A stretch of 64,000 nt of DNA from Candidatus Saccharimonadota bacterium (GTDB lineage: Bacteria; Patescibacteriota; Saccharimonadia; Saccharimonadales; AWTP1-31), in NCBI GenBank assembly GCA_003962975.1, contig RXKC01000003.1, positions 50,890-114,889 of the forward strand, read 5' to 3'. Shown piece after piece: positions 1-51,688 of the stretch. The first letter of the stretch is position 1. Every line of letters begins with the position of its first letter. The notes beneath the pieces are model-generated. The model saw only the letters and a list, made by a program, of their open reading frames with translations. It ran no database searches and had not been told where the DNA came from. The translations under genes were made by a program, and so were the position numbers.

Positions 1-864
1 CGTCAATGCTTCGCCTAGTGCAACAGCAATAGCTGCAGTTTGGTGGTTATGGGGGCCACCTTGCAGACCAGGAATGATCGCTCGGTCGATGAGGGATGGG
101 ATGTTCTCGACAGTTCGTTCTGGTTTTTTGAGAGGGTTAGATGGATTGCCATTAGCCAAGATGAGTGCACCGCGTGGACCACGGAGTGTTTTGTGTGTGG
201 TGGTCATAGTCACATCGACGATACCAATTGGCGATGGATGTACTCCTGCAACCACCAGACCAGCAATGTGCGAGATGTCGGCCGCCAAGAAAGCACCAAC
301 GCTGTCGGCAATCTTACGCAGCTTCTGCCAGTCGATGATACGTGGATAAGCAGTGGTACCGGCGATGATTAGCTTTGGTTTTTCCTGCAAGGCGAGTTCG
401 GCAATTGCGTCATAGTCTAGAAAGCCATCTTTGTCGGTAGTGTACTGTACAGAATTGTAAGTAGTACCAGAGAAGTTAACCTTCAAGCCATGCGTCATGT
501 GGCCACCGTAAAATAGACTCAGACCCATAACAGTGTCGCCTGGATCAACTAATGCAAAATAAATAGCTTGGTTTGCCGGGCTGCCAGAATAGGCCTGTAC
601 GTTTGCATGTGATACGCCAAAAAGTTCTTTAGCACGATCACGGGCAATGTTTTCGACTTGGTCGACAAATTCACAGCCACCATAGTAGCGCTGGCCCGGG
701 TAGCCCTCTGAATATTTGTCGGTGAGTCGACTGCCGAGTGCGGCGAGCACATCTGCTGACGTGTGGTTCTCGCTCGGGATCATCTCGAGACCCTCGACCT
801 GTCGTTTAGTTTCGGCCTTGATCAGTTTCTCAATAGCCTTATCTTTCATACTTGCTTGAGTCAT
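1..864 (-). CDS. glyA: serine hydroxymethyltransferase, N-terminal ~288 codons (3' part lies beyond the window start)
   Basis: Own reverse-strand translation from the ATG at 864: MTQASMKDKAIEKLIKAETKRQVEGLEMIPSENHTSADVLAALGSRLTDKYSEGYPGQRYYGGCEFVD ... TTHKTLRGPRG. These are classic SHMT motifs, including the PLP-lysine context. It is absent from the ORF track because it is open at the window edge. Confidence 0.95.
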   Translation of the reverse strand, partial: MTQASMKDKAIEKLIKAETKRQVEGLEMIPSENHTSADVLAALGSRLTDKYSEGYPGQRYYGGCEFVDQVENIARDRAKELFGVSHANVQAYSGSPANQAIYFALVDPGDTVMGLSLFYGGHMTHGLKVNFSGTTYNSVQYTTDKDGFLDYDAIAELALQEKPKLIIAGTTAYPRIIDWQKLRKIADSVGAFLAADISHIAGLVVAGVHPSPIGIVDVTMTTTHKTLRGPRGALILANGNPSNPLKKPERTVENIPSLIDRAIIPGLQGGPHNHQTAAIAVALGEALT

Positions 865-1099
865 AGTTGTTACCCCTCTATATCTCTAAGTTTTGTTGCT
901 TCGCTCGCGCCAAAAAGTTCTCTCTTACTTTTTGGCAGTGGTTATCGGGCGTAGCTAGATCATGTACTAATGTTACTGCATCTTTTCCAAAGTGAATACG
1001 GTAATAAATGCTACACCCCAAGAGCGTCACCTCGCCCAAGACTTGTCTTAGACAGTCTGTATGCAATACTGGTAGTAACGTTATCCATAAGGAATTCAT

Positions 1100-1858
1100 A
1101 TGAACGCTGAAAAAGTAAAAAAACTGACCATGCAGGTTATGATTGGCTCGCTGATCGTAGCAGCTCTTATTGCAGTAGTAGCGGTTTTAGCGGGCAGTTT
1201 TAATGACACATTCGGTAAAGCGCTCGGCACATTATTCCTGGTTATGCTGCATTCGCTGACAAGCTTGAGTTTTCTGGGCCAAACCTTACATGAAAATCGT
1301 GCCTTCAAATTCTTTGAAAACACTATTTTTGCTCTCATTATTATGAGTTTCTTTACGTCAGTACTGGGTGTATGGTCGTTACTAGACGGCGAAACTGTGG
1401 GCAAACTTTACATGACGTACGCAGTATTATTCTTTGCCAGTTTACATGGGCAAATGCTGTGGAGCACCAGAGGTAAAGAGCCTAAAATCGACGCCATTGT
1501 TACCGTAAACTACGTCTTTATGGTCGCAGTTATCCTGCTTTTACTACCTCCAATCTGGGTAGACAACGGCGACTTCCCATCAGTGTATTACCGCATCCTA
1601 GCTGCCCTGGGCATTATCGATGCGACGCTGACTATACTGGCTGTCATTCAACATCGTATGTACATGCAAAAACATCCTGAACTACAGAGCCCGATCTATA
1701 ATGTCCCTGTCGCCTATGACGCCAAGGGCAAGCCGCTCCCGGCACCAGCTGGACAAAAGCGACACTTTCACCCGCTAATATGGTTACTCGGGTTATTTAT
1801 CGTTGGACAAGTGGTACTACCGCTGATTTACCTGTTCTTCAACGCTATTAGTCAATAA
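1100..1858 (+). CDS. polytopic membrane protein, unknown function
   Basis: 252-aa ORF with at least 6 hydrophobic segments and no recognisable catalytic motif. Confidence 0.6.
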   Translation: MNAEKVKKLTMQVMIGSLIVAALIAVVAVLAGSFNDTFGKALGTLFLVMLHSLTSLSFLGQTLHENRAFKFFENTIFALIIMSFFTSVLGVWSLLDGETVGKLYMTYAVLFFASLHGQMLWSTRGKEPKIDAIVTVNYVFMVAVILLLLPPIWVDNGDFPSVYYRILAALGIIDATLTILAVIQHRMYMQKHPELQSPIYNVPVAYDAKGKPLPAPAGQKRHFHPLIWLLGLFIVGQVVLPLIYLFFNAISQ

Positions 1859-1937
1859 TAGCCCGTCCGTGAGATACCTCTTGTGGTAAATGTCAATATT
1901 GACCTTTATATCGTCCGGAGTATACTAACCGCTGATT

Positions 1938-3461
1938 ATGTCGACAACCAATGAGAAAATTGGCCAACTTATTTATCAGATAAGGCAAGATCGAGGCCTT
2001 ACTCAAGCTGCCTTTGCCAAGCAATTAGGTACCAGCCAGTCGGCGGTAAACCGTATTGAGCACGGCAAGCAAAACCTAAGCCTCGAAACTCTCGGTCGTA
2101 TCAGCGATGTGTTAAATAAGCCAATCATTCAGATTGGTGAAGGTGGCATTAACTTACGTGTTGAGGGTGGTCATGAATTGCACGGCAGTATTACCCTAAA
2201 AAAGAGTAAAAACGCCGCTGTCGCCCTGCTCTGCGCTAGCTTGTTGAATCACGGCATTACTCGCATCAAGTCTTTCCCTCGTATCGAAGAAGTTAACCGC
2301 ATTATCGAAGTGCTCGAAAGTATTGGCGTCAAAGTAAAGTGGTTACCCAATAATGACATCGAGATCCGTCGGCCAGCTAAGCTGGACATGGAAAAAATGG
2401 ATGCACCAGCTGCCCGCAAAACCCGCAGCGTACTGATGCTGCTGGGGCCATTGATGCACGAATTAACTAGCTTCAAGATCCCCTACGCCGGTGGCTGTAA
2501 GCTTGGCACCCGCACGGTTGAACCACATTTGCTAGCACTCGAGCAGTTTGGTGTAGGCGTCATCGCTCGTACTGGTCACTACGAAGTAGTGGTTGATAAA
2601 AAGAAACCCGTTGACCATGTCGTACTGTATGAAGCCGGTAACACTGTTACTAACAATGCCCTCATGGCAGCCGCTCGAACCAACGGCACAACCGTCATTC
2701 ACGGAGCTAGCGCTGACTATATGGTGCAAGATCTCTGCATGTTCTTAAAGCGCCTAGGCGTCAAAATCAGTGGTATTGGTTCATCGGTACTTACTATTGA
2801 AGGTACCGGGCCAATCAAAAAGAATATTACATTTGAGCCAACTGAAGATCCTATTGAGGCTATGTTCTTTATTTCTGCTGCTATTACCACTAATTCCCAC
2901 ATTACGATCAAGCGTGTGCCGATTGACTGGATTGCCCTCGAGCTCTTTAAGCTAAAGGTCATGGGCCTGAACTATAAGGCCAGCAAACGCTACCCTGCAG
3001 CCAATGACGTAACTGAGTTAGTTGATCTCGAAATTAATAAGCACAATGGCAATTTGGTCGCTCCGCGAGATAAATTGCACCCTAATTTGTGGCCAGGTAT
3101 TAACCCTGACAACATCCCCTATTTCGTCCCAATCGTCGCCGTTGCCAAAGGACGGACCCTGATTCATGACTGGATTTTTGAGAACCGCGCTATTTATTAC
3201 ACCGAGCTTACAAAGATCGGTGCCAACATCGAGTTAGCTGATCCACATCGTATTTACGTACATGGTCCAACTAAGTTTACAAAGGCAGATGTTGTCTGTC
3301 CGCCGGCCCTGCGTCCTGCCAGCTTGCTACTGATCGGTATGCTCGCCGCTGAAGGCACATCGATACTCCGTAACGTCTATACTATTAACAGAGGTTATGA
3401 AGATCTGGCCGAGCGATTGAACAGTCTTGGTGCATCGATAACCGTCCTTCACGAAATTTAA
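1938..3461 (+). CDS. murA: XRE-type HTH domain fused to UDP-N-acetylglucosamine 1-carboxyvinyltransferase (MurA/EPSP-synthase fold)
   Basis: Residues 8-62 (IRQDRGLTQAAFAKQLGTSQSAVNRIEHGKQNLSLETL) form an XRE/Cro HTH. The rest aligns to MurA: SKNAAVALLCASLL (Lys22 region), YAGGCKLGTRTVEPHL (catalytic Cys115/Arg120 loop) and IHDWIFENRAIYYTEL. It is one uninterrupted frame. Confidence 0.85.
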   Translation: MSTTNEKIGQLIYQIRQDRGLTQAAFAKQLGTSQSAVNRIEHGKQNLSLETLGRISDVLNKPIIQIGEGGINLRVEGGHELHGSITLKKSKNAAVALLCASLLNHGITRIKSFPRIEEVNRIIEVLESIGVKVKWLPNNDIEIRRPAKLDMEKMDAPAARKTRSVLMLLGPLMHELTSFKIPYAGGCKLGTRTVEPHLLALEQFGVGVIARTGHYEVVVDKKKPVDHVVLYEAGNTVTNNALMAAARTNGTTVIHGASADYMVQDLCMFLKRLGVKISGIGSSVLTIEGTGPIKKNITFEPTEDPIEAMFFISAAITTNSHITIKRVPIDWIALELFKLKVMGLNYKASKRYPAANDVTELVDLEINKHNGNLVAPRDKLHPNLWPGINPDNIPYFVPIVAVAKGRTLIHDWIFENRAIYYTELTKIGANIELADPHRIYVHGPTKFTKADVVCPPALRPASLLLIGMLAAEGTSILRNVYTINRGYEDLAERLNSLGASITVLHEI

Positions 3462-3554
3462 GCATAAGCGTGTTAAATATTATACTTGCATTTATCGCAA
3501 GTTAGTGAGATATTTCATAGCATATATAACGGGTGGGAAAATAGGAGAACTGCT

Positions 3555-6500
3555 ATGGTGCGACTGGGAGCCCGTTCGTTCAAAACAAAAACACTACTTT
3601 CAAGAGTAAAAAACACCGCGATTGCTGGTGTGTTTGCCGTGGTACAGCTTACACCTGCCGTTGTGCTGCCTGCCAAAGCAGCTGCAGCTACAACAGCGCC
3701 AACCAACCCAACCCTTACACAGGCTTGTGGTTTGGATATTGCCCTCGTTATCGATAACTCAAACAGTATTGATAATGGCGAAATGACCCAGATCAAGAAT
3801 GCCATGACTGGCTTTACCAACGCGCTTAACGGCACCCCTACCCAGTTCTCCGTTACTCGCTTTGGGACATCTGCAACTGTTTTGCGTAACTTTACTGCCA
3901 ACGTAGGCAATGTAAACAGTTCAATCAATGGCATCTCAACCGGTGGTGGTGGTACAAACTGGGAAGATGGTCTTCTCAAAGCCAGCGGCACCTTTGACCC
4001 ACGTGCCGACAAGCCAAACCTAGTAATCTTTGCTTCCGACGGTAACCCAACTTACCGAAACGACGGCAACGGCGGCATTGACGGAAACGGTTCAAGCGAT
4101 CCACTTGGCTACAACCTAGATAATGCTGTAGTTCGTGCCAACGCTATTAAAAGTGCAGGCACCCGTATCCTCGCTCTTGGTATCGGTGACGACCTAGATG
4201 TCAACAACCTCAAAGCTATTTCTGGCCCTAACGCCAACACCGGCAATGTTTTGACCTCTGACGTTATCACATCTAACTTTGCAACTCTTGCAAGCGACCT
4301 AGCTGCATTTGCACAGCAAACCTGTGGTGGCACCATTACAACTCAGAAGCTTATCGATGCCGACGGCAATCCTAACACTACAGACGATCGCACTCCTGCA
4401 GCTGGATGGACCTTTGATATCAACGGTTCACCAAGCAACCCTGCTGCTGAAGCTACTGCTGGCGTAAATGGTCAAACTTCAGCTGTGAAAGTACAAGCTG
4501 GTACATACAGTGTCAACGAAACTCCACAAGCCGGTTACGACATCCTGTCAGCAAGCTGTACTGGTGCCAATGCCAATGGCTCGCGTCAAGGCAACAGCAT
4601 CGTAGGTATTACTGTTGCTGATAGCAACATCGTCTCTTGCGTATTCGTCAACGCACCAAGCAAAGGCAGCGTAAAAGTCGACAAGAAACTCGACCTTGAC
4701 GGCGACGGTACATACGAAAGCGGCAACAGCGAAGCTCAAGCACGTAACATTTTCTGGAACCTCGACGGTGGCAGTAACACAACTTTTGGCGGTACTATCA
4801 GCAACGTTGCTGTTGGTAGCCACACCGTAAACGAAACAAGCGTCGTTGGCTACCACTTCACTGGCTGGTACCCAACCATGAATACACAGCAGCAGTCATG
4901 CGCTAACCCAGCTGGCACTACACTACCAGTAAATATCACTGTAAATTCTGGTGTCGCTACAGCCATTACTCTCTGTAATCAGCGTGATACCGGTAACCTA
5001 AAAGTTGTTAAGAAAGTCATTAATAATAATGGTGGTACTGCAGATGCAGATGACTTCACCCTCTATGTTAAAAAAGGTAGCACCAACGTAAGTGATAGCC
5101 CTGCAGCCGGCTCAGCGAGCGGCAAAACCTACAAGCTTCCTACCGATACGTACACCGTCAGCGAAGACGCCAAGACTGGCTATGCGCAGACTTCACTGGT
5201 TTGTAAAGATGATGTTACCGGCAATACTGTTACTCACCCTGTAGTGTTGGCTCGTGACCAAAAAGTCACCTGTACAATCACGAATGACGACAAAGCCCCA
5301 ACAGTTACCGTTACGAAAAAAGTAGTTAACCCATATGGTGTCCCACTTTCACCAACTGCCTTCCCTCTATACATCGATGGCACACCTGTTGTCAGCGGCA
5401 CTCCCTACACACAGTTCAACGCTGGCTGGCGAACTATTAGCGAAGATCAGCAGACCGGTTATGAGTTTGGTGGTGTGAGCGGCGACTGTCAGTATGGCAA
5501 CGACGTTATAAGCATCTTGCTCAGCCTTGATGCTCACGCAACCTGCACCATTACCAACACAGCCATTCAGCCAAAACTAATTGTTAAAAAGAAAGTCATC
5601 AACGATAACAGTGGCACAAAATCTGCTAGCGACTTCACCATGGTTGTTAGCGGCAACAGTGCCGTAGTACCAAACTTCCCTGGTAGCAGCTTTGGTCAGA
5701 GCGTTGGCCTCAACGAAGGCAGCTACAATGTCACCGAACTTGGCGCCGAAGGCTACAACGCCAGCTTCAGCGCCGACTGTTCAGGCACAATCAGTGTTGG
5801 CCAAACCAAGACTTGTGTCATCACGAACAATGACAAAGCAAACCCAAGCATTCACGTTGAGAAGTTCGGCCCAGGCACTGCACACGAAGGTGACGAGATC
5901 GTATACGTGTTCAAGGTAACCAACACCGGTGATACCACACTTGATAATGTAAACATCAGTGACGACATCGCATCTAACGAAACCTGTGACGATACCTCCC
6001 TGAACATTGGACAAACAACGACCTGTACTGCCACGTACACCGTACCAAGCCCACAGATTGCACACGTCGTAAACACCGTAACCGCTGAAGGCACTGACCC
6101 AGACGACACCACTGTTACTGATACTGACGACCACATCATGGACGTACTACATCCATCTATTAACGTCGAAAAGACTGGTCCTAACAGCGCCAACGCTGGC
6201 GACACCGTTACGTACACCTTTACGGTTACCAACACCGGCGATGTACCACTCAGCATCTACAGCGTCGAAGACAGCATCACTGGTGACGGTGAGTACGTCA
6301 GTGGCGACACCAACCTTAACGATGTTCTAGACCTAGACGAAACATGGATCTTTACGGGCAAATACACCATCCCGGTCAAGCAAACTGCACCAGTAGTTAA
6401 CACTGTTACAGCTTGCGGCTACGAGCAGTATTACTACGATGAAGAAGATGACCGAGATGACGTCCTAGAGCGACTCGTGATTCAAGATGACTTGCCAATT

Positions 6501-11672: not shown

Positions 11673-13121
11673 TTACTCTATGGGGTCGGATGGTGGTCGG
11701 GTAGGAGTAATCATCGTGCCGGTGTCACCTTTTGCGTCGGCCTTCACGGTCTTATCTTCAGGGTTTTCCATAATTGTTTCGACTGCCACCTCTGGTTTTT
11801 TGCTGACAGTTTTCGTGGCAACAACCTTATCGGCACCAACTTTGCGTTCAATCTCGCTGAGAGTGTCGGTATCCTTAACGGCAGCCTTGTCTGGTGCTGT
11901 TTTGAGCTGAGTTTCGTGCAACGGCTTTGTCTCGGGAACAGACGGTGCTAGTGGCTGCACAGGTGCAGCATCTGGATCGGTGCCCACACCATTCACCACG
12001 ATACCACCAGTAACTTGGCGTCCTGAGCCTTTGCTTGGTCGGTGCTGGAGCCATCGTTTGCCAAGAACGATGAGTGCGATTGCAAGCGCAACTACAATTG
12101 CGATGCCTGCATACAGTGGCCAGTTAAATGGTTTCTTTAGAGTAAGTGCAAATTCCTGAGCAGTGACTGGTGAAGATGCGCTGGTATCAGTGACTGTTAT
12201 TTCTTTGGTAGCCGCACCAAGTACGCCTTTAGCTTCTAGCTTGTATTTGCCAGGTGCAATGCCGATAAAGCTGGCGACACCTTCATTGTCAGTAACAACG
12301 GTTTGCTTGTTGAGGGTTACGGATACGCCTGGGACTGGCTTGCCGTCAGGCCCCATGATAGTAATAGCGACAATGCCACCAAGTTGCGGTTGGGTAGCCG
12401 TCTCGTTTGGAGTAGTTACTTCTGTTGGAGAAGACGGGGTGGTAGGAGTTGTTGTGGGATTACTAGGCGTAGTCGGACGTGAAGTATTACCACCACCTCC
12501 GCCAGAGCGCGGCGTGGATGGCGTAGTAGGAGTTGTCGGAGTGCTAGGTGTTGTTGGAGGTTGTGGATTGTTTGTTGGTGGTTGTGGAGGCTGAGCCGGT
12601 GCAGCTAGAGTGTAGCTACCGCCACTCGTATTTCCGTTCCAGATATTAACACCTGTACCTGATTGAGAAATCTCGGAGTCAGACGTAAAGTTGAGAGCTG
12701 TCGAGCCCGTGGTTACTGCCTTGAAAACTGCCGTAGCAATCAATCGCTCATTAGTTACTGTGTTCGGTGGATTAATAAAACAGGTCACTCTGACAAGGCC
12801 ATTAGAGCCAGATGACTCTGGGCAGTTCGTGAATGAGCCGCCAGTATTGCTGACACTGACAAACTGAAACTTAGCAGTGTCATACGTTAAGCCAAATGTG
12901 ACAGCATTTACCGTAACGTTGCCGCTATTCTCGTAGATACCAACCGATATGTTTGTATCTTTGGTAACACTACCACTGGCTGGTTTTAACAAAAGGGTGG
13001 CATCACCGGTGGCAGCACGGGAGAATGTCAAGAGATACGTTCCAACAGCAGCGATCGCAACTACTACACCAATCCGTGCAATATTTTTTAGTACGTTACT
13101 TTTTTTGCCTGTTTTTTTCAT
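11673..13121 (-). CDS. membrane-anchored surface scaffold: cohesin-like module, Pro/Thr linker, Ig-like (carboxypeptidase-regulatory-like) domain, TM helix, cytoplasmic tail
   Basis: Signal/anchor IGVVVAIAAVGTYLLTFSRAATGD. A beta-rich ~130-aa module carries GLTYDTAKFQFVSV...ATAVFKAVTTGSTALNF, a cohesin-like pattern. The PT-rich linker includes PQPPTNNPQPPTTPSTPTTPTTPSTP. The Ig-like part reads GPDGKPVPGVSVTLN..TDNEGVASF..APGKYKL and the TM helix is LYAGIAIVVALAIALIVLG. Confidence 0.6.
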   Translation of the reverse strand: MKKTGKKSNVLKNIARIGVVVAIAAVGTYLLTFSRAATGDATLLLKPASGSVTKDTNISVGIYENSGNVTVNAVTFGLTYDTAKFQFVSVSNTGGSFTNCPESSGSNGLVRVTCFINPPNTVTNERLIATAVFKAVTTGSTALNFTSDSEISQSGTGVNIWNGNTSGGSYTLAAPAQPPQPPTNNPQPPTTPSTPTTPTTPSTPRSGGGGGNTSRPTTPSNPTTTPTTPSSPTEVTTPNETATQPQLGGIVAITIMGPDGKPVPGVSVTLNKQTVVTDNEGVASFIGIAPGKYKLEAKGVLGAATKEITVTDTSASSPVTAQEFALTLKKPFNWPLYAGIAIVVALAIALIVLGKRWLQHRPSKGSGRQVTGGIVVNGVGTDPDAAPVQPLAPSVPETKPLHETQLKTAPDKAAVKDTDTLSEIERKVGADKVVATKTVSKKPEVAVETIMENPEDKTVKADAKGDTGTMITPTRPPSDPIE

Positions 13122-14713
13122 TTCGCTGTCCAGTTATTTAACACTAGTAATAGATCGCTATAGTTTACGGAGCCTTTACCGTCTAGCTCGCCTTGCTCAC
13201 GAGTTCTGCCTGATTGACCCCAGTTGTTAAGCACGGCTAGAAGATCTTTATACTCAACGACTCCGTTGTTATCCACATCGCCTGCTTTTGGAGTTGGTGG
13301 TGGCGTAGTGACATTATCTGTAGTGACTGTGATGGAAGTTTGCTGACTGATATTTCCTGCCTTGTCCTGTACTCTGACCGATATCGTATGGCTGCCGTCA
13401 GCTACCTTAGTAGAATCCCATGCAAAGGTGTATGGAGCAGCCGTAACTGAACGCTGCAAGACACTGTTCACATAGAATTCTACCTGCTTCACTCCACTAC
13501 CCCCGACATTGTCGGCAGCATTGGCAGTAACATTAACGGTACCTTTTAGATTGGCCGCGTTGTTCGCAGGGCTGGTAATGCTAACAGTAGGCACGGTGAC
13601 GTCGGGGCTGCTAACCGCGATATCAATGCCGGTTGTATTATTTGATTCATTGCTTTCCACAACCTTATTGGTGCTGTCCACGGTGGCTTCTATGCGGTGA
13701 TTGCCGGCAATTGCTGTCCATGTAGCACCTGCGGTAATTTCAACTGTTGAGTTCGGGGCAATTGCAGGAGTATATGTAGCAGCTGTGATTGGCGACCCTC
13801 CAGCTGAAAAACTAATCACATTCTGCAGGCCAGCCACAGTTGCAGCTGCGCCTTGGTTGCGGATAGTGGCTTTTATAGTCACTCCATCACCAACCTTAGG
13901 TGAGGCAGGAGTTGTTGAGAGAGTAGCCACGATAAGATCTGGCTTGCCGTTTTGTACGATGACCTGGCGGGTTGTTGTCGCAGTGTTACCTGCGTCATCA
14001 GTTGCTCTAGCTGTGAGGGTGTGCGTGCCGTCAGTAGTAAGTAGCGTATTCCATTGAACAGAATATGGACTGGTTGTATCTGGTGTTGCCAGCGCAGTGC
14101 CGTTAAGCAAGAACTCTACTTGTTTAACGCGATTATTGTCGGTCGCTGTAGCAGAAACTGTTTGCGTTCCTGTCAGGACAGTTGGACTGGCAGCGGGCGC
14201 TGTCATGCTGACTGTAGGGTTTTGTACGTCAATCGGTTCAGCACAGTCATTGCCCAAGCCAGATGGCGTACAGGTTTCACCGCTAGTATTAATGCGGGTG
14301 AAGATTACTCTATCTACGAGGACTCCTTCACTCGTTCCCAGTAAGCGCATAGAAAATGGCGAACCGGCTGTCAGGTTAACATTGATCTTTGAACTGGCAG
14401 CCCCACCGTGAAAATCAACCCAAGTCCAGGTATTTGCGGGCAAGGAACCGGAGCCATTCACGGTATAGCAAGTACCGCCGTTAACTTCGATGAGAAAGTT
14501 ATTTTTTGCACTATCTGGTATTTGCATACGCGTCCAGACGCGGTATGTACCACTTTCTGGAACAGTAAGATTATTGAAACTAACCGTACCAAAGCTTGGG
14601 TTCGGATCGGCACAAGCTGCCTCTGCTCGTGATTCAACTAGTAAAAAACTAGCCGTCAACAGGGCGAAACCGACCAGCAAGGTAACCACACGGTTTTTGC
14701 TGATAAAACGCAT
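13118..14713 (-). CDS. secreted multi-domain protein with C-terminal dockerin (two EF-hand-like repeats), Ig-like repeats and a CARDB-like domain
   Basis: Start is preferred at MRFISKNRVV (14713). The dockerin duplicate is GDVDNNGVVEYKDLLAVLNNWG / GELDGKGSVNYSDLLLVLNNW. The CARDB-like stretch is KPDLIVATLSTTPASPKVGDGVTIKATIRNQG. Two Ig-like repeats follow the pattern P(T/V)VS(M/I)T(A/S)P...VxVxAxAxDNxxVxxVEFxxN. The stop TGA overlaps the ATG of the next gene (ATGA). Confidence 0.65.
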   Translation of the reverse strand: MRFISKNRVVTLLVGFALLTASFLLVESRAEAACADPNPSFGTVSFNNLTVPESGTYRVWTRMQIPDSAKNNFLIEVNGGTCYTVNGSGSLPANTWTWVDFHGGAASSKINVNLTAGSPFSMRLLGTSEGVLVDRVIFTRINTSGETCTPSGLGNDCAEPIDVQNPTVSMTAPAASPTVLTGTQTVSATATDNNRVKQVEFLLNGTALATPDTTSPYSVQWNTLLTTDGTHTLTARATDDAGNTATTTRQVIVQNGKPDLIVATLSTTPASPKVGDGVTIKATIRNQGAAATVAGLQNVISFSAGGSPITAATYTPAIAPNSTVEITAGATWTAIAGNHRIEATVDSTNKVVESNESNNTTGIDIAVSSPDVTVPTVSITSPANNAANLKGTVNVTANAADNVGGSGVKQVEFYVNSVLQRSVTAAPYTFAWDSTKVADGSHTISVRVQDKAGNISQQTSITVTTDNVTTPPPTPKAGDVDNNGVVEYKDLLAVLNNWGQSGRTREQGELDGKGSVNYSDLLLVLNNWTAK

Positions 14714-14825
14714 ACAATCATAGTACACGCATATGCTTAGTCTCTGCAATATCAGATGTATCTACCTGGTCACATCTGGCGGATAGGCTAAAAATCTGTA
14801 CAATAGATATACATAAGCATGGTGA

Positions 14826-16457
14826 ATGTTAATGACTAAACGCGGCACGCACCAAACAAGAGGAAAAGGCAAACCACGGGTGACACAAAAGGGCTTGAAG
14901 GCAAAAAGTCGATCTGTATCAAAGAGTTTTGGTCAGAAACTTACTAAACGGCTGGCCAAACTTCCCCGCATTGTAGTCATCATGGTTGGTTTTGCCATTG
15001 TTGGTACAGTCGCACTGGTTATATCTCAGGCCGCAACCCCAACCAGCAGTACCGAAGCTGAAGGTGGCACGCGGAGCAGCGGCGCGAATATTGTTGCGAA
15101 CGGCAACGCATCAGGGGGCGCTTACATACGCTTTGGCCCCGGCACCCCAACCAATAACCTGACCCGTCGATTCTTTGCCGATAGCGTTTCATGGAATAAG
15201 CCTGTCAGCCAAATGGGCATCTCTTCAAGTTACCCTGGTTACGTCGAGCGAATGTTTAAGTATAGTGGCGCGTCTGGCTGGGACGACCCTGTACTTGGTA
15301 TTGGGTTTAACCCCAGCGTACGGGGCAACTATAATCTTGCCCTGCGTGATTACTCGGTGCCAATTTATGATCTTGCCACTATGACTCCAGCCGAGAAGTC
15401 GAATCTTACCACCAAACGAGTGTATTGGTCTGGCTGGGCGTACCCAAATGCCGAAAGATACGAGTGTGACGGCGTTGGCATTTCGCCGTGCACCGGTTCA
15501 CAGACTTCAGTACCGGTAACACCGGGCATGTTTATTCCGTGGGATCCTGACTGGAAACCAGGCACTGGCTACGACCGCATCATGGCCGTTATAAATTCAA
15601 ATACAGGAGAATTCTGGTCATACTACGGCACTAACATCGATCCGCTACAGTGCACAATTTTTGGAGGTGGTGAGAACTGGCTTGGCAACGCTACCGCCAC
15701 CCCGGCCTTTGATGCCAACGATCCAAACCATATCTGCATGTCTGGAGCTAACAGGCGTGCGAATATTTATGAGATCAACCAGCCAACAACCGTCAATGGT
15801 CGCGGTATGGGCATCGATAAACTCGCTCTGGTTGTTCGTGCCGAAGAGGTACAAAGCGGTGAGATCAGGCATGCCCTAGGACTGACCATATTCAGCCAGA
15901 TGTTTGGCCCAGCCTGCAATCCGGCCACCCCAGCGGTTGCGGCAGGCGCTGGCGTCAGCTGTGCATTTTACTTGCCACCAGCAACTCGCATAGAACACAC
16001 GACCATACCCCATGGTGGCGCTAACGCATGTAAAGAAAATACCATTCAAAATACCCATGCCAACCGCTCAAAGACCATACCAAGTGGCATGCGCTTTCGC
16101 GTTAATCGGCCCAAAACCATTGCTGATGGAGCAAACTCAATAGAAGCATGGCTTAATAGCAAAGGATATACAGGAAACAAACGAAACACTGCGCGCATTA
16201 TTGGTACCGCATTAGTTGATTACGGATTTGTTGCCGCGTCTGAAACTGGCTGCGGTAACCCACACTGGGAATTTGATGGCATGCAAAACCCGAAAACGCG
16301 TGACATATGGGTCAACGAATTGGGTCTCGAGGATACTGGCTCAGACAATGGCGGTCAAAGCTCCGGCCAACCAGACGGACTTGCCGACTACCCTTCTGGC
16401 AACTTGATGCACGGTTTTATAACTGAGACAAATATGCAAATTGTTAACCCAGGTTAA
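14826..16457 (+). CDS. secreted/anchored protein of unknown function
   Basis: A basic N-terminus is followed by the anchor IVVIMVGFAIVGTVALVISQAAT and an AEGGT..GANIVANGNASGGAYIRFG motif. The large C-terminal region has no motif I can name. Confidence 0.6.
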   Translation: MLMTKRGTHQTRGKGKPRVTQKGLKAKSRSVSKSFGQKLTKRLAKLPRIVVIMVGFAIVGTVALVISQAATPTSSTEAEGGTRSSGANIVANGNASGGAYIRFGPGTPTNNLTRRFFADSVSWNKPVSQMGISSSYPGYVERMFKYSGASGWDDPVLGIGFNPSVRGNYNLALRDYSVPIYDLATMTPAEKSNLTTKRVYWSGWAYPNAERYECDGVGISPCTGSQTSVPVTPGMFIPWDPDWKPGTGYDRIMAVINSNTGEFWSYYGTNIDPLQCTIFGGGENWLGNATATPAFDANDPNHICMSGANRRANIYEINQPTTVNGRGMGIDKLALVVRAEEVQSGEIRHALGLTIFSQMFGPACNPATPAVAAGAGVSCAFYLPPATRIEHTTIPHGGANACKENTIQNTHANRSKTIPSGMRFRVNRPKTIADGANSIEAWLNSKGYTGNKRNTARIIGTALVDYGFVAASETGCGNPHWEFDGMQNPKTRDIWVNELGLEDTGSDNGGQSSGQPDGLADYPSGNLMHGFITETNMQIVNPG

Positions 16458-16460
16458 TAA

Positions 16461-16988
16461 CTAACGACGAACTTTGACCATGGCGTGTCGAATAACTGTG
16501 TCGCCTAATTGATAGCCAGCCTGCAGTTCTTCACTGACAATCTCTTCTTCACCATCGCCTTCGTCCACCCCAACAGCTTCATGAACATGAGGATTAAATG
16601 GCTCTCCTACCGTCGCAATACGTTTAACGCCAAGTCCTTGCAGGGTCTGCTCGAACTGTTTCACCACCCCTTGCACGCCTTTAATATAGTCATTGTCGGC
16701 AAGGTCTTCTGGCACATGCTTGAGTGCTCGTTCGAAGTTATCAATAACAGGTAGCAAGCTTTCGATAACGCTTACTTGTAGCACTGACTTTAGATTGGCT
16801 AGTTGCTCGTCATGGCGACGACGAATATTGGTCGCATCAGCTCGCTCGCGCTGCAGTGCTTCGGTAAGTTCAGCAACCTGACGCTGCAACAATTCTAGCT
16901 CTACGCTAGCCATAACGCCATCATTCTGTTGACTATTATTTTCTGGCTCCGGCTGTTTTGACGCATCATTCTTTGAAGTCTTAGACAT
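16461..16988 (-). CDS. grpE: nucleotide exchange factor GrpE
   Basis: GrpE C-terminal pattern (LPVIDNFERAL ... FNPHVHEAV ... GYQLGDTVIRHAMVKV). The ATG at 16988 overlaps the hrcA stop by 8 nt. Confidence 0.9.
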   Translation of the reverse strand: MSKTSKNDASKQPEPENNSQQNDGVMASVELELLQRQVAELTEALQRERADATNIRRRHDEQLANLKSVLQVSVIESLLPVIDNFERALKHVPEDLADNDYIKGVQGVVKQFEQTLQGLGVKRIATVGEPFNPHVHEAVGVDEGDGEEEIVSEELQAGYQLGDTVIRHAMVKVRR

Positions 16989-17691
16989 ACAAAACCTCTT
17001 CCAGCGCTTCACCAGTACGGCGCACCAAGCTCATAACATCACGGTAACTCTGCCTCGTCGGACCAAGAACTCCGATATAGCTGCGATCACTAAAATTGCT
17101 GCGAAAACGACTAACGATCAACGAACAGCCAGCGCTTCTGCCGACAGGATTCTCTTGGCCGATATAAACACTGAGTGGCTCGTTAGGGGCCGCCTCGTAC
17201 AGCCATGGCTCTAGATTGTCGAGCAAACGAGCTACCTCGCGCACCTGACCACCATTCATAAACTCTGGCTGACCAAACAAGTTTGAGAGGCCACTCATAT
17301 AGAGCTGATCGCCTATGGTAGCGATGCCTAGATTATGCGTTAGCTCAACCAAAGTATCGACAGTGTTTTTAATAACTTGCTCGCTGACACCACCACTTGC
17401 CACACGCGTTGCCAAAGCTTTTTCGGCTCGACGTTCGGCCGCAGATTCTGGTGCATTTTCTACCAAGTTATTAACATAGTATCGGTAGCCCTTATCCGTA
17501 GGAATACGACCAGCGCTGGTGTGTGGCTGTTTGATCATACCCTGCTTTTCAAGCTCAGCCATTTCGGAACGGACAGTTGCCGAGGACACGCTAAAAACCT
17601 TAGCCAAGAGGCTGCTACCTACAGGACTTGCTACCTCGGCGTATTGTTCAACAATAGCTTGCAGAATACGCTTCTGTCGTTCACTTAACAT
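16981..17691 (-). CDS. hrcA: heat-inducible transcription repressor HrcA (compact, 236 aa)
   Basis: N-terminal wHTH (LSERQKRILQAIVEQYAEVASPVGSSLLA...SSATVRSEMAELEKQGMIKQPHTSAGRIPTDKGYRYYV) and C-terminal IGVLGPTRQSYRDVMSLV. It is ~100 aa shorter than typical HrcA proteins. Confidence 0.9.
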   Translation of the reverse strand: MLSERQKRILQAIVEQYAEVASPVGSSLLAKVFSVSSATVRSEMAELEKQGMIKQPHTSAGRIPTDKGYRYYVNNLVENAPESAAERRAEKALATRVASGGVSEQVIKNTVDTLVELTHNLGIATIGDQLYMSGLSNLFGQPEFMNGGQVREVARLLDNLEPWLYEAAPNEPLSVYIGQENPVGRSAGCSLIVSRFRSNFSDRSYIGVLGPTRQSYRDVMSLVRRTGEALEEVLYV

Positions 17692-17700
17692 GGCTCCATT

Positions 17701-17727
17701 TTAGCACTCTAGTGCCTGCAGTGCCAA
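17701..17727 (-). promoter_or_regulatory. CIRCE operator 9 nt upstream of hrcA start
   Basis: TTAGCACTC-N9-CAGTGCCAA. The left half is the perfect consensus and the arms are 7/9 complementary. Confidence 0.6.
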
Positions 17728-17792
17728 TGCTTATAAACCATACAGGGGTAGCTGGGTTGAATTTTTGCCCCGCGTCGACTATACTGCCATAA

Positions 17793-18410
17793 ATGAAGTC
17801 ATCCCCCTCCAACCGCACTGCCCTTATCAAGCAGTGGCTCAGCACGGGGAGTATCAATATATTTGGTATACCGTTTTCGGGTAAAGATACCCAGTGTCAG
17901 AGACTGGCAGAAGTACTCGATGCTGCTAGCTTTGGCGGCGGCGACATACTACGCAGCAGCCAAGTATCTGCCCAGCTGACCGCAGATATTAATCAAGGCA
18001 AGTTAGCTCCGACAGAAGAATACCTTGCAACCGTGGTGCCTTATTTTGCACGAACAGAGATAGCCGACAAGCCGTTGGTACTCAGTTCGGTAGGTCGCTG
18101 GAGTGGCGAAGAAAACAGTGTTATTGCCGCTGCACAGAAAAGTAACCACCCAATTAAAGCGACTGTTTGGCTCAAGCTTGATCAAGCCGAAGCACTAAAA
18201 CGCCTACACGCTGCTGATCGTGGGCGCGATGATGATCATGAAGCAAAACTAGCCACTCGTATGCAGGAGTTCGCAGCAAAGACAGTCCCCGTACTAAAAA
18301 CCTACGAGAAACAAGATCTACTCATTGAAATCGATGGGACCAAAAGCCCCGAGCAAGTCACCGAACAGATCCTAAACGCTTTAGCTGGAAAGGCCACCCA
18401 AACAGCATGA
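17793..18410 (+). CDS. adenylate-kinase-family nucleoside monophosphate kinase (divergent P-loop)
   Basis: GIPFSGKDTQ aligns to GAPGAGKGTQ of Adk. GGGDILR aligns to STGDMLR. RGRDDDHEAKLATRMQEFAAKTVPVLKTYEK...IDGTKSPEQV matches the Adk C-terminal pattern. Confidence 0.55.
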   Translation: MKSSPSNRTALIKQWLSTGSINIFGIPFSGKDTQCQRLAEVLDAASFGGGDILRSSQVSAQLTADINQGKLAPTEEYLATVVPYFARTEIADKPLVLSSVGRWSGEENSVIAAAQKSNHPIKATVWLKLDQAEALKRLHAADRGRDDDHEAKLATRMQEFAAKTVPVLKTYEKQDLLIEIDGTKSPEQVTEQILNALAGKATQTA

Positions 18411-18874
18411 AACAAGCACCCGACTTTTCCCTACCCGACCAAACTGGCACAATAAAGTCACTGAAAGATTTTTCTGGACGCTGGGTCGTGCTGTATTTTT
18501 ATCCTAAGGACGACACTCCTGGCTGCACCACCGAAGCCTGCAACTTTCGAGATGCACGTGAATCGATTGCCAGCCTGGGTAATGCCGACGTAATCGGTAT
18601 TAGCAAAGACTCCGTCAAGAAACACGCTCGATTCGCAGAGAAATACCAACTGAACTTTACACTACTCAGTGATCCTGAAGCCGAGACCATCAAGGCCTAC
18701 GGCGCCTGGGGGCACAAAAAGTTTATGGGCCGTGAGTTTGAGGGCATACTACGCAACACGTATCTGATCACACCTGACGGTAACATTGCCAAAGAGTATC
18801 TTGGCGTAAATCCAAAAGAGCACGCCGCCGAAATCATCAACGACCTACAAGCCCTCCAAGCCGAGAACGGCTAA
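18407..18874 (+). CDS. bcp: thiol peroxidase Bcp (peroxiredoxin)
   Basis: FYPKDDTPGCTTEACNFRD active-site motif. There is an ATGA overlap with the upstream gene. Confidence 0.9.
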   Translation: MKQAPDFSLPDQTGTIKSLKDFSGRWVVLYFYPKDDTPGCTTEACNFRDARESIASLGNADVIGISKDSVKKHARFAEKYQLNFTLLSDPEAETIKAYGAWGHKKFMGREFEGILRNTYLITPDGNIAKEYLGVNPKEHAAEIINDLQALQAENG

Positions 18875-19047
18875 AAATCCTCGTGACCACAATCTACAAC
18901 TAGTAGTTCTTTCGGAACGTTCACGCGCGGGTAGCCGCCCGCCTGAACTGCACTAAAGTATCGCATTTCCGCGGTTGGCTACACCGGCTTCACTTAGATT
19001 CCTCAAGAATCTACTAATTGTAGCTTTCGCAAGGCTTTGTACAGCTG

Positions 19048-19563
19048 CTAGGCGGCAGAGGTTTGTTCTGGGGTGATCATGACGGTAGCGACTTCACCAG
19101 TTATATCTTTGGCTGGTAACGTAATCGTTACTGTCGTACCGGTACCAAGCTTGCTGCGGATTGCGATGGTACCACCCAACTTATCAAGGATAACCTTGTT
19201 GGTGTACAGACCAAGCCCAATACCTTCGTAATTGTACTGCATGGATTCAGTGCCGCGTACGAATGGCTTGAGCAGACTTGGTAGCTTCTGCTCAGATATA
19301 CCGACGCCTTGGTCACTGACAGTCAAAACAACTTTGTTAAATCGTTTGAAGAGATTCACTTGTACGGTACCGCCCTCTTTACTGAATTTAGCGGCGTTGT
19401 CTACCAACGAATCGATCAGCTGCTTAATCTCTTCCAGTTCTTTGACCCAGCCAACCAAAAACTCCCGTACACCCTCATTCAGGACTTTACGTCGGTACTT
19501 GGTCGGCCACACAAGATGGTAGTCACAGTAGAAGACCGCATGATCCATTCGTCGATACTTCAT
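19048..19563 (-). pseudogene. chimeric ORF: IS200/IS605 TnpA N-terminal ~45 aa fused in frame to the HATPase_c end of a histidine kinase
   Basis: MKYRRMDHAVFYCDYHLVWPTKYRRKVLNEGVREFLVGWVKELEEI is the Y1-transposase N-terminus and lacks the HUH motif and catalytic Tyr. It continues as LVDNAAKFSKEGG...DQGVGISEQ...GIGLGLYTNK...GTGTTVTITLP (N, G1 and G2 boxes). There is no HisKA or phospho-acceptor His. Confidence 0.7.
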
Positions 19564-19700
19564 AGGTGGAAGTATGACGTACTCAGTGGAGCCTTAGCAA
19601 CGCCCGGACGAAAGAAGCTGGCGGGGCTTTACAGCCCCGACCTGACGGTCGGGGAAAGTCGCGCCGGGATTATACTGAACTAGCCATTCAATGAAATGCC
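19426..19700 (-). mobile_element. IS200/IS605-family remnant (left-end hairpins plus truncated tnpA)
   Basis: The tnpA-homologous codons span 19426-19563. Upstream, two GC-rich hairpins overlap: GGGGC-TTTACA-GCCCC (19623-19638) and CCCCGACC-TGAC-GGTCGGGG (19635-19654). This resembles the subterminal hairpins of this IS family. No intact transposase or tnpB is present. Confidence 0.45.
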
Positions 19701-19724
19701 TTATGGTAAAAGAAATAGAAAGCG

Positions 19725-21503
19725 TTAGTCGCGTTTGAGCATGACGGTGAAGGCTTCGGCGGGGATGTCGACTTTACCAAATCGCTTGAGTCGCTTCTTG
19801 CCTTTTGCCTGTTTGGCCAGCACTTTCTTTTTTCGTGAGACGTCACCACCGTATAGTCCAGTTGTGACATCTTTACGGTAAGCACTGATATCTTCACGGG
19901 CGATAAACTTACCACCAATACCAGCTTGCAAAGCCACCTGGAAGTTCTGCCTTGGGATAACTTCTTTAAGTTTTTCAACGGTTTCGCGGCCTAAGCGCTG
20001 TGATTCGCTGCGGTGCACCATGACACTTAGCGCTTCAACCATTTCACCGGCAACGTAAAAGTCTACCTTTACCAAGTCTTCGGCACGGTAGTTGTCTAGC
20101 TCGTAGTTAAAGCTACCGTAGCCACTGGTCACACTCTTTAGTTGGTCGTAGAAATCAGTCAAGAGATTTGCCAGCGGAGCTTCGAACGAGACTAATGCCA
20201 GTTGGGCATCAACGTAGCTGAGATTCTTTTGAATGCCCCGCTTGCTAGAGATAAGCTGGATAACACCACCAACGTATTCTTTAGGTACTACCACCTCACC
20301 CTTAATCCAAGGCTCGCGTACCTCAAATATCTTGGCCGGATCAGGCAGATCCGCTGCACTTTTGATGTCGATCTCTTCTTTATTGACAAGCGTAATCTGG
20401 TAATCGGTAGAGGGGTTGGTTATAACCAGGTCTAGGTCGTACTCACGTTCTAATCGCTCGCGCACAATATCCATGTGCAGTAAGCCTAAAAAGCCTACCC
20501 TCACACCAAAGCCTAGTACTGGCGAATTCTCTGGCGTAAATTGCAGAGCCGAGTCACTAAGCGATAGTTTTTCGATAGCATCCTTCAGTAGCTGGTAGTT
20601 CTCGTTACTGTCCGGGAAAAAGCCGGCATACACAAACGGCCGAACATCTTTATATCCAGGTAGCGGTTGTGTAGCAGGTCTTTTCGTTAGTGTAACGGTA
20701 TCGCCAACTTTTGCTTCTCGAGTACTCCGCAGGTTAGTTACGACATAGCCAATTTCTCCAGTTGCGAGTTCTGGGAAGGGCTTCATTTCAGGATTTAAGC
20801 TCCCAACTTCGAGCGCAATGCCGCCTGCACCAGTTGCCATCATGGTTATTTCACTACCCTTGGCAATGGCACCATCCATAACCCGCACATACAACACTAC
20901 TCCCCGGTAATCATCATAGTAACTATCAAAGATCAGGGCACGGGTAGGTGCCTCGGCATCACCCGAAGGTGCTGGCACTACATCAATAACTCGCTCCAGT
21001 ACTGCCCCAACACCCTGCCCCGTTTTGGCGCTAATATGCAGGATATCTTCTTTACTACAGCCAAGCAGCGAGATAACCTCGGCACTTACGCGCTCTACGT
21101 CTGCCGCAGGCAAGTCAATCTTGTTTAGAACGGGAATAATAGTCAGGTCTGCTGCCATGGCTAGGTAGACGTTAGCGAGGGTCTGGGCTTGGATACCCTG
21201 GCTGGCGTCAACAACCAAGATTGCTCCTTCACACGCCTCAAGGCTACGTGACACCTCGTAACTAAAGTCAACGTGACCAGGTGTATCGATCAGGTTCAGC
21301 TCAACTCCCTGGTACTGCATACGTACCGGGGCAAGTTTAATTGTAATTCCCCGCTCCCGCTCTAGATCCATCTTGTCCAGCAGCTGCGATTTCATATCAC
21401 GTTTCTGGACAGTACCAGTCAGCTCCAGCAGACGGTCGGCCAGAGTACTTTTGCCATGGTCAATATGAGCGATAATACAGAAGTTTCGAATGTTCGATTG
21501 CAT
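19725..21503 (-). CDS. lepA: translation elongation factor 4 (LepA)
   Basis: IRNFCIIAHIDHGKSTLADR, DTPGHVDF, NKIDL, and the conserved LepA C-terminal domain. Confidence 0.97.
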   Translation of the reverse strand: MQSNIRNFCIIAHIDHGKSTLADRLLELTGTVQKRDMKSQLLDKMDLERERGITIKLAPVRMQYQGVELNLIDTPGHVDFSYEVSRSLEACEGAILVVDASQGIQAQTLANVYLAMAADLTIIPVLNKIDLPAADVERVSAEVISLLGCSKEDILHISAKTGQGVGAVLERVIDVVPAPSGDAEAPTRALIFDSYYDDYRGVVLYVRVMDGAIAKGSEITMMATGAGGIALEVGSLNPEMKPFPELATGEIGYVVTNLRSTREAKVGDTVTLTKRPATQPLPGYKDVRPFVYAGFFPDSNENYQLLKDAIEKLSLSDSALQFTPENSPVLGFGVRVGFLGLLHMDIVRERLEREYDLDLVITNPSTDYQITLVNKEEIDIKSAADLPDPAKIFEVREPWIKGEVVVPKEYVGGVIQLISSKRGIQKNLSYVDAQLALVSFEAPLANLLTDFYDQLKSVTSGYGSFNYELDNYRAEDLVKVDFYVAGEMVEALSVMVHRSESQRLGRETVEKLKEVIPRQNFQVALQAGIGGKFIAREDISAYRKDVTTGLYGGDVSRKKKVLAKQAKGKKRLKRFGKVDIPAEAFTVMLKRD

Positions 21504-42856: not shown

Positions 42857-42908
42857 TGTAATAATTATTACTTGAGCAGAACACAAATTTAGGGATACTA
42901 TAAAAACA

Positions 42909-43298
42909 ATGGCGCACATTCTGATTGTCGAAGACGAAACTAGCCTCAACGAGGCATACACTATTATTCTCAAAAAAGAAGGTTACAGCATTAGCAATGC
43001 GTTTAATGGCGTTCAGGCCCTAGAGGCTATCAAGCAGACTGAGCCCGATCTGATTCTGCTAGACTTGCGCATGCCGCAAATGGATGGAGTTGAGTTCTTA
43101 CGCAACCTTGCCCCCCTCGAGAACTATCCAGCTATGAAGATAATCGTATTTAGTAATTATGATGTGCAACAAGACATTGACGAAGCTTTTAAGCTTGGTG
43201 CTACTCACTACATGCTAAAAGCATGGGCCTCACCTCGAGAGCTTGTTAAAGTTGTTGCACAGACTCTGAAAGAAACAAGAAAAACCCGCGTTTCTTAA
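42909..43298 (+). CDS. single-domain response regulator (receiver only)
   Basis: ILIVEDE ... LILLDLRMPQMDG ... K at the KAW position. At 129 aa it has no output domain. Confidence 0.9.
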   Translation: MAHILIVEDETSLNEAYTIILKKEGYSISNAFNGVQALEAIKQTEPDLILLDLRMPQMDGVEFLRNLAPLENYPAMKIIVFSNYDVQQDIDEAFKLGATHYMLKAWASPRELVKVVAQTLKETRKTRVS

Positions 43299-50235: not shown

Positions 50236-50308
50236 ATCTTACTCTCCGTGCTTGACAGCACTTGCCATTCACTCAACAATACGGACAATACATTAAGTGG
50301 AGGGGCGT

Positions 50309-50722
50309 ATGGTAGAGATACAAGGCATGAACTATTTGGCAATTGTAGTTGCATGGTTAATTAACTGTGGGGTTGGCGCATTCTGGTACTCACCTGCGGG
50401 GTTTGCAAAAGAATGGACCAAACAAACCAAGATCGACATAATGAAGATCCCTCAGCAACAAGCTACAAAGATCCTCATGTCGGTAGTCGCATCTGGGCTT
50501 GTGCAGGCAGTCACTCTGGCAATCCTGATCCGTTCGCTTGGTAGCGACACTGCCAGTGAAGGACTCGCTGCGGGCCTCCTGATGTGGTTTGGCCTAGTCA
50601 CTGCTACAACCGTAGGAGTGAGCCTTTATTCAAAACGAAGCTGGAAATTTATCGGTCTCAACAGCCTGTACTTTCTCGTGGTGATGTCTGCCAACTCGAT
50701 CATCTTCGCCGTGTGGCAGTAA
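50309..50722 (+). CDS. DUF1761-family membrane protein
   Basis: MNYLAIVVAWLINCGVGAFWYSPAGFAKEW signature and 4 TM segments. Confidence 0.65.
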   Translation: MVEIQGMNYLAIVVAWLINCGVGAFWYSPAGFAKEWTKQTKIDIMKIPQQQATKILMSVVASGLVQAVTLAILIRSLGSDTASEGLAAGLLMWFGLVTATTVGVSLYSKRSWKFIGLNSLYFLVVMSANSIIFAVWQ

Positions 50723-50804
50723 TCTGTTTAGACTGTTGCAAAGAAATCCTTGTCGAAACTAGCAAAATGATGAATAATATCATTGCTAACTAAAGGAGAA
50801 AAGA

Positions 50805-51245: not shown

Positions 51246-51268
51246 CATCTGTCTGCTATAGTGAAGTC

Positions 51269-51661: not shown

Positions 51662-51688
51662 TGCGTTTATTGCTATACTAATAGCAAG

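Follow-up and report, generated by a model that had tools for sequence, protein, structure and literature searches.

Between lepA and bcp, in one strain of Saccharibacteria (TM7), the start of a transposase gene is joined in frame to the end of a kinase-type ATPase gene. We read this locus as the scar of an IS-associated deletion, with a probability of about 85%. The event is a fresh instance of a well-known kind, since IS-associated deletions and chimeric pseudogenes occur in host-dependent bacteria with reduced genomes. It shares with these a deletion that would have one end inside an IS, the loss of flanking genes and an accidental fusion ORF. In contrast to the typical case, the break lies within tnpA at a microhomology, and not at an IS terminus or between two copies of the element.

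A transposase start fused to an ATP-binding domain

The chimeric ORF has 171 codons, starts with ATG and occupies 19048..19563 on the minus strand of the window (the whole 64-kb stretch that was analysed), as given by the ORF list and by the Pfam matches to Y1_Tnp and HATPase_c. In the ORF list its neighbours are lepA (19725-21503, minus strand) and bcp (18407-18874, plus strand). It consists of TnpA residues 1-45 followed, in the same frame, by the 126 C-terminal residues of a kinase-type ATPase domain. The tnpA remnant (19430..19563, minus strand) comprises codons 1 to 44 plus two bases and was delimited by tblastn with residues 1-45 of the intact transposase P0003, to which it is 93% identical. 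The remainder (19048..19429, minus strand, stop codon included) is the remnant of the catalytic and ATP-binding (CA) domain of a giant Saccharibacteria kinase-like protein, recognised from C-termini that are 55-74% identical.

Profile searches recognise both halves. Pfam Y1_Tnp covers residues 10-47 of the chimera with profile positions 2-39 of 121 (E 9.6e-6; 26.2 bits, the Pfam cut-off being 23), and HATPase_c covers residues 45-152 with profile positions 5-110 of 111 (E 2.7e-23). In a PDB search the Sulfolobus Y1 transposase 2ec2 matches residues 1-38 (E 8.8e-6) and kinase catalytic domains match residues 39-157, while NCBIfam aligns the chimera from about 39-52 to about 147-159 with the C-terminal ends of many sensor kinases. 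All the ATP-binding boxes are kept, namely N56, D84-x-G86-x-G88 (G1), F101 and G114-x-G116-L-G118 (G2); they are invariant in the alignment with the homologous fragment P0002 and agree with the family profile.

The first-pass annotation had described about 45 codons of a Y1 transposase that end before the HUH motif and run on into the N, G1 and G2 boxes of an HATPase_c domain lacking HisKA, and this chimera is confirmed. The remnant stops ahead of both the HUH motif and the catalytic tyrosine, which lie beyond residue 45 in P0003, the three boxes (and the F box) can be read in the sequence and alignment, and Pfam gives no HisKA-type match in the chimera at E up to 1, its residues 1-45 being TnpA. 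The similarity to TnpA is significant by Pfam, tblastn and blastn alike.

The source element and its left end

P0003 is an intact TnpA of 143 residues in which the HUH motif (HIHLH) and the C-terminal tyrosine (in RRYIENQ) are readable; PF01797 is carried by it and by two further intact relatives, P0006 and P0018. It is encoded on many contigs and in at least six unrelated flanking contexts in Saccharibacteria, with HSP20/L10, CYTH and an rve-type IS among the neighbouring genes. The same element is thus found at different genomic sites, which is how mobility is recognised in the IS200/IS605 family. Alignment of P0003-encoding loci from different sites, together with blastn, gives an IS length of 583-586 bp. 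The intact IS begins with (T)ATAATATCGGTGCGACTTT followed by CCCCGACC-GTAA-GGTCGGGG, and finishes with CCCCGAGC-GTAA-GCTCGTGG followed by GAAGTTTAAT; the right end is also written as ...GGGAAGTTTAAT. In the left-end hairpin the loop is GTAA or GTCA, depending on the copy. The stems carry compensatory changes between left end (LE) and right end (RE), GACC/GGTC as against GAGC/GCTC, and the LE of a more distant lineage (L034/L036) has GGGC/GCCC.

The mechanistic reference for the IS200/IS605 family is IS608 (PMC3201880, PMC3597680), in which TnpA cuts at sites set by the end hairpins, and in which the distances from end to hairpin are 19 nt on the left and 10 nt on the right (PMC3201880). The Saccharibacteria element has the same asymmetry: terminus and hairpin foot are 19-20 nt apart on the left and 10 nt apart on the right. 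Like the family as a whole it has imperfect subterminal palindromes at both ends and no terminal inverted repeats, and as in IS608 and the IS200 group its intact copies encode a Y1 HUH transposase of about 143 residues. Unlike its IS200/IS605 relatives the element is very short. Members of the family insert 3' of a specific tetra- or pentanucleotide and make no target-site duplication; here no conserved tetranucleotide was recognisable 5' of the left end at seven insertion sites, where the adjoining 4-5 nt read AAAT, AATG, GTTA, CCCA, AATG, TCAG and ATGC. No target-site duplication is visible at the IS flanks. Judged by these sequence features, the source element is a tnpA-only IS200-group member of the IS200/IS605 family.

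In the window, the 111 nt upstream of the chimeric ORF (19564..19674, minus strand) are the non-coding LE of this element, which alignment with intact copies and blastn show to be complete to its outer terminus, TATAAT.... By blastn the DNA from 19674 to 19430 is 87% identical to the IS of L031/L032 and 80% identical to that of L005/L014. Homology to the IS stops at 19674, and the 49-50 nt that separate it from the lepA stop (19675..19724, minus strand) are host DNA flanking the insertion site. The subterminal LE hairpin CCCCGACC-GTCA-GGTCGGGG lies at 19635..19654 on the minus strand (arms 19635-19642 and 19647-19654); it was recognised as an inverted repeat with a predicted fold, is kept in intact IS copies and is the putative recognition structure of TnpA. 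A smaller hairpin read from the sequence, GGGGC-TGTAAA-GCCCC (19623..19638, minus strand; arms 19623-19627 and 19634-19638), is identical in the IS copies L005, L014 and L031. The two overlap by 4 nt in a shared CCCC tract and must therefore be alternative pairings.

These are the two overlapping GC-rich hairpins of the first-pass annotation, located where it had put them. Its suggestion that they are subterminal structures of the TnpA type holds well: because intact IS copies carry the same end hairpins, those in the window are genuine LE structures of an IS200-group element, and the LE hairpin is preserved with compensatory changes in mobile copies, its recognition by TnpA being putative. 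No Rfam family explains the hairpins, either in the whole window at gathering thresholds or in 18700-19900 at E up to 1; the only matches from these searches were two tRNAs and one sub-threshold, snoRNA-like chance match.

When the intact TnpA and the full IS were searched against the 64-kb window by tblastn and blastn, no 3' part of tnpA, no IS right end and no other IS DNA turned up. Among 50 further window ORFs (five small ORFs at 50297-52024 left out) none has a transposase or integrase Pfam match, consistent with the view that this is the only mobile-element trace in the 64 kb. The IS copy in the window is thus a 245-nt fragment without catalytic motifs and without a right end, and hence immobile; it does not have the complete transposase gene and two ends of a functional IS.

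A giant gene probably lost between lepA and bcp

We scanned one genome per GTDB species for the kinase domain and found nine Saccharibacteria loci in which it is 55-74% identical, none being above 74%. With the exception of L023, C-termini of this similarity (L015-L023, L025/L026) belong to proteins of 2,100-2,240 residues, and in L015, L016 and L018-L022 the domain closes an open frame of more than 2,100 residues wherever the contig permits. The giant protein of L026 has 2,238 residues, and the homologous frame in L023 has 508. Pfam finds fn3 and HATPase_c domains in the giant proteins, with the ATPase domain at the very end. A HisKA-like match in them is sub-threshold only (E 0.014-0.027) and is centred around the motif ITTHYLNTPVAIM; as read from the sequence, this motif is flanked by hydrophobic segments and precedes the ATPase domain. 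The absence of HisKA from the chimera is therefore only partly due to truncation, given that the parent proteins also have no Pfam-significant HisKA. The kinase gene proposed earlier as parent is thus right as to the source of the ATP-binding domain; however, in most relatives the gene encodes a surface or membrane protein of 2,100-2,240 residues, and what was lost would be more than a few hundred codons.

Comparison of the locus in related genomes, which the first-pass annotation had proposed, shows the giant gene to lie where the chimera sits, convergent with bcp. The convergent arrangement is found wherever both genes are seen (L015, L016, L019, L021-L023 and L025/L026, and also L004); in L018 and L020 more than 4 kb separate the domain match from the bcp-like DNA. 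The closest LepA relatives (93% identical in LepA, about 77-78% in DNA) have the order murJ - lepA - two small genes - 2,238-aa gene - bcp - gmk - hrcA. In the window the order is murJ - orf202 - lepA - chimera - bcp - adk - hrcA - grpE, a match which places the chimera at the exact position, and in the orientation, of the 3' end of the giant gene. A relative whose LepA is 92% identical has no giant gene in the lepA-bcp interval, and in L027 lepA is found near bcp. The small genes between lepA and bcp are unrelated from lineage to lineage, so this interval is variable.

No other part of the giant gene is present in the 64-kb window, as judged by tblastn with the giant proteins, though the genome may hold a copy elsewhere. 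The sole extra match in the window was an unrelated canonical CHASE-HisKA-HATPase_c kinase at 41093-42856, which together with an adjacent receiver protein spans 41093-43298.

Codon-level comparison of the chimera, the tnpA of L005 and eleven kinase homologs places the junction at the pentanucleotide GAAGA (19430..19434, minus strand). Here the chimera reads GAA CTG GAA GAG ATT AAG CAG (E L E E I K Q) and the IS reads GAA CTT GAA GAC CAT AGA (E L E D H R), whereas the kinase homologs have Q-P-(E/A)-E-(I/M)-(K/R)-Q, for example CCA GAA GAA ATT CGT in L004 and L017. The crossover would fall in GAAGA, which would amount to a 5-nt microhomology if the lost kinase parent read GAA GAx. Since the break lies inside tnpA at a microhomology and not at an IS terminus, transposase chemistry was probably not responsible, and the pattern points to slippage or illegitimate recombination instead.

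Two other features near the junction were considered and set aside. A 9-nt sequence at the junction, GAAGAGATT, recurs inverted at 19348-19356, but chance alone would yield about one such pair over this length. The LVGW of the chimera is similar to the LVGY of the L016 and L026 kinases, a likeness that we regard as coincidence, since the remaining kinase homologs have other residues there and L(I/V)GW is found in TnpA relatives.

These data are consistent with a model in which the ancestor would have carried, between lepA and bcp, a gene for a large membrane or surface protein, transcribed towards bcp as the synteny in relatives shows and ending in a histidine-kinase-type ATP-binding domain. 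An IS of about 585 bp, encoding only tnpA, would have landed some 49 nt beyond lepA with the same orientation, as the intact LE shows. A single deletion at GAAGA, most likely by replication slippage or illegitimate recombination, would then have fused tnpA at codon 44/45 to the beginning of the N-box helix of the kinase. Lost in this step would have been tnpA codons 46-143, the right end of the IS, any genes that lay between the two, and the whole kinase gene apart from its last 126 codons. The frame would have been preserved by luck, with one chance in three, so that the tnpA start came to head a 171-codon ORF. The core of the history suggested at first, an IS insertion followed by deletion of the rest of both genes, is supported, but the IS is most simply placed upstream of the kinase gene and not inside it: the LE is complete and begins 49 nt past the lepA stop, so that one deletion is enough.

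In L026 about 8 kb separate the lepA stop from the corresponding codon of the kinase gene, which suggests that probably 6-8 kb was lost together with about 0.35 kb of the IS, provided that the parent was of the giant type. For a short parent of the L023 kind the figure would be about 1.2 kb or more. DNA identity to the nearest relatives is only 72-78%, and the sequence of the parent, the precise microhomology and the deletion size are all inferred. An un-deleted allele or close relative was found neither by the protein search and the GTDB species scan nor in the JGI metagenomes or among the LepA relatives.

A rearrangement could also bring the two halves together, if recombination between the IS and the giant gene had inverted or translocated DNA and left the 5' part of the giant gene, joined to the 3' part of tnpA, elsewhere in the genome. 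The DNA inspected amounts to 64 kb of that genome, and recombination partners could exist, given that L025 holds two giant paralogs (1..4357 and 13498..20214). However, the position of the chimera between lepA and bcp keeps the ancestral gene order and orientation seen in L025, L026 and L029, whereas an inversion or translocation ending at the chimera would break this synteny, and the window contains neither a further fragment of the giant gene nor an IS right end. We therefore consider such a rearrangement very improbable.

A single-strain ORF and its product

The identical junction occurs in four other assemblies, L001 (ENA), L002 and L003 (Logan) and L037 (GenBank WGS), on contigs ERZ28614720, SRR28640823, SRR28640815 and JACCDG010865367.1, which come from different pipelines and samples. 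An assembly artefact, in which IS reads were mis-joined to kinase-gene reads, deserves mention because every matching contig is metagenomic, the window most likely so too, and IS copies are classic break points for assemblers. Its probability is negligible and it is effectively refuted, since the same junction was assembled independently in these four contigs and both flanks run on into syntenic single-copy genes.

The contigs bearing the junction are 99.6-100% identical to the window and thus represent the same strain. In no diverged genome was the fusion detected by the protein search, the GTDB species scan or the metagenome scan: after the chimera itself, the next-best protein match is the non-chimeric fragment P0002 (51% identity), and the JGI metagenomes gave one copy of the chimera at 100% identity, the next locus being 68% identical in the kinase domain. 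The ORF is intact, with every ATP-binding box preserved, in all five assemblies. The same would be expected after a recent deletion. Across the same-strain contigs it carries two SNPs, N122S (in three contigs) and a synonymous change, which are too few for a test of selection. A 171-residue ortholog conserved under purifying selection, the observation that the first-pass annotation would have taken to speak against a scar, was not found; the protein is confined to the 99.6-100% identical contigs.

The product has neither the HUH motif nor the catalytic tyrosine and so cannot be a transposase, and having no transmembrane segment, no sensor and no phospho-acceptor helix it should be unable to autophosphorylate as a kinase. 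It shows strong profile and sequence similarity to the CA domains of histidine kinases and, like those of WalK/YycG (3sl2), PhoR (8h70), EnvZ (1bxd) and HK853 (2c2a), has the N, G1, F and G2 boxes. Unlike these kinases it has no dimerisation and phospho-acceptor domain, no sensor and no membrane anchor. It also differs from solved CA domains in that TnpA sequence, unrelated to the domain, stands in place of its first 40-47 residues. The isolated CA-domain structures 3sl2, 8h70, 1bxd and 6blk begin 40-49 residues before the aligned part, and the chimera aligns with solved domains only from their residue 41-50 on, so that the structural ATP-binding domain is short of about 40-47 residues at its N-terminus. 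AlphaFold2, run with an alignment spanning both halves, gave pLDDT values below 50 for residues 1-26 and of about 45-64 for residues 21-40, with a mostly confident core at about 50-150 that dips at 101-120. Given these low values, the TnpA-derived segment is not predicted to replace the missing elements.

The expression signals of the ORF are weak. It had been proposed that the promoter, ribosome-binding site and start of the IS still head the frame. The tnpA ATG does open an intact frame of 171 codons, but no sigma-70-like promoter was found upstream and no Shine-Dalgarno sequence is visible ahead of the ATG, which itself lies in the loop of a predicted hairpin formed by CGTCATACTT and AAGTATCGACG (19550..19579, minus strand). 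This 10-bp hairpin was predicted when the RNA of the window and that of the intact L005 IS were folded, and intact IS copies share it. In Salmonella IS200 a 5' stem-loop reportedly represses translation of tnpA (Beuzon, Marques and Casadesus 1999). The hairpin around the start codon, present in the chimera and in the intact copies, is reminiscent of that arrangement, although it has no sequence homology to IS200 and no support from covariation, and by analogy it may damp translation. The product is most likely non-functional and, if made at all, would be made at a low level.

The opposite case would be a domesticated gene, expressed from the IS left end and kept by selection as a small soluble ATP-binding protein, whose target in trans might be another kinase, for example the CHASE-HisKA-HATPase_c protein at 41093-42856. 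The open frame and the preserved nucleotide-binding boxes would fit such a role. Pfam HATPase_c begins almost exactly where the in-frame junction lies, which could be read as selection for a whole domain, the chimera occurs in five assemblies from at least three samples, and the kinase and receiver pair in the window is a conceivable partner. In vitro, CA domains on their own can phosphorylate dimerisation domains supplied separately, as in the domain complementation of EnvZ. Against this, the five copies are one strain (99.6-100% identical) with no ortholog in diverged genomes, and of the two SNPs in the ORF one changes an amino acid. The lack of the N-terminal CA residues, for which the TnpA segment is not predicted to substitute, the lack of promoter and Shine-Dalgarno matches and the start codon enclosed in a hairpin likewise make domestication very unlikely. 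Very unlikely, too, is a newborn gene in which the IS left end starts transcription and translation of a selected, free-standing ATP-binding module, or in which the IS 5' region serves as a regulatory RNA; were it true, the module could modulate the remaining CHASE-type kinase in trans after loss of the giant sensor.

As the probable scar of a deletion, the ORF matters for annotation. Automatic pipelines will name it an ATP-binding protein or a histidine kinase, and a pseudogene or fusion flag is advisable. The comparison also documents an uncatalogued and very small (about 585-bp) IS200-group element circulating in Saccharibacteria; literature searches on Saccharibacteria and IS200, and on giant kinases, returned nothing relevant.

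The locus shows a small IS taking part in the loss of what was probably a 6-8-kb surface-protein gene in a lineage with reduced genomes. The lost gene, which lies outside the window, is a more interesting object than the chimera itself: it belongs to a family of proteins of 2,100-2,240 residues that combine an extracellular repeat region with a C-terminal kinase-like module. Among Saccharibacteria the lepA-bcp interval may hold this gene, lack it or hold a shortened form, a pattern that suggests a variable locus, possibly one related to interaction with the host.

The lepA-bcp interval and its long hairpin

The composition of the interval between lepA and bcp, which in the window holds the chimera (19048-19563, minus strand), differs among Saccharibacteria, as seen in two loci of other assemblies that we compared. 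One (L027, 11780-13157) lacks the giant gene, that is, the gene of relatives encoding a kinase-like protein with a C-terminus of the type found in the chimera, and the other (L023, 2801-6375) carries a short, 508-aa version of it together with an inverted lepA. The small genes inside the interval also differ, the set in L026 being unrelated to that in L027.

RNA folding shows an imperfect long hairpin of about 135 nt (18891-19026) in the intergenic space that separates the stop codon of the chimera from that of bcp. Its minimum free energy, -67.7 kcal/mol, corresponds to a z of about -4.5 to -5.0 and was equalled by none of the shuffled sequences. The hairpin sequence occurs once within the window and has no match in Rfam. 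In L026 an equally strong long hairpin (12061-12200, z -5.6) occupies the same place 3' of an intact giant gene, and the two hairpins have no sequence similarity; in other relatives the spacers at this place are short and unstructured. The window hairpin may serve as a bidirectional terminator, or it may be a small palindromic element.

Other features of the window

Comparison of bcp with the same-strain contig L002 revealed 21 SNPs clustered in 136 nt (18565-18700), all but one of them synonymous, outside which the two sequences are nearly identical. Such clustering suggests that a diverged allele contributed this tract by homologous recombination. Elsewhere, a 507-aa ORF (1938-3461, plus strand) joins an N-terminal HTH_3 (XRE-type) domain to a full-length EPSP_synthase-family (MurA/AroA-like) domain, an architecture that is unusual.

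Copies of the small IS in other assemblies

One copy of the small IS directly adjoins two further genes for transposases, one of the HTH plus rve type and one of the DDE_Tnp_1 type, and is part of an IS cluster (L008, 369-2862; also L011) on another Saccharibacteria-like contig. In the IS copy of L031 and L032, which of all copies most resembles the left end in the window, tnpA starts with GTG rather than ATG; P0006, an intact PF01797 relative of the window's tnpA fragment, is 150 aa long because gene callers extended this ORF upstream.

The giant proteins of relatives

Giant Saccharibacteria proteins encoded outside the window (L015, 1-6378; L016, 4-6372; L026, 5344-12060; L025, 1-4357) form one family, on which we found no literature. 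Complete members have 2,122-2,238 aa, those of L015 and L025 (1-4357) being incomplete as they run off their own loci; the L025 genome has two paralogs. An anchor lies at the N-terminus, and the proteins also contain Gly-rich repeats and domains of the fn3 or Ig-like type; farther along, a transmembrane segment precedes a weak HisKA-like H box, after which two further hydrophobic segments lead to HATPase_c. In L004 (1-1520) a 51%-identical kinase homolog is broken across two reading frames around 540-594. The cause is a frameshift or an error in sequencing, and the locus may represent a second, independent decay within the giant-gene family.
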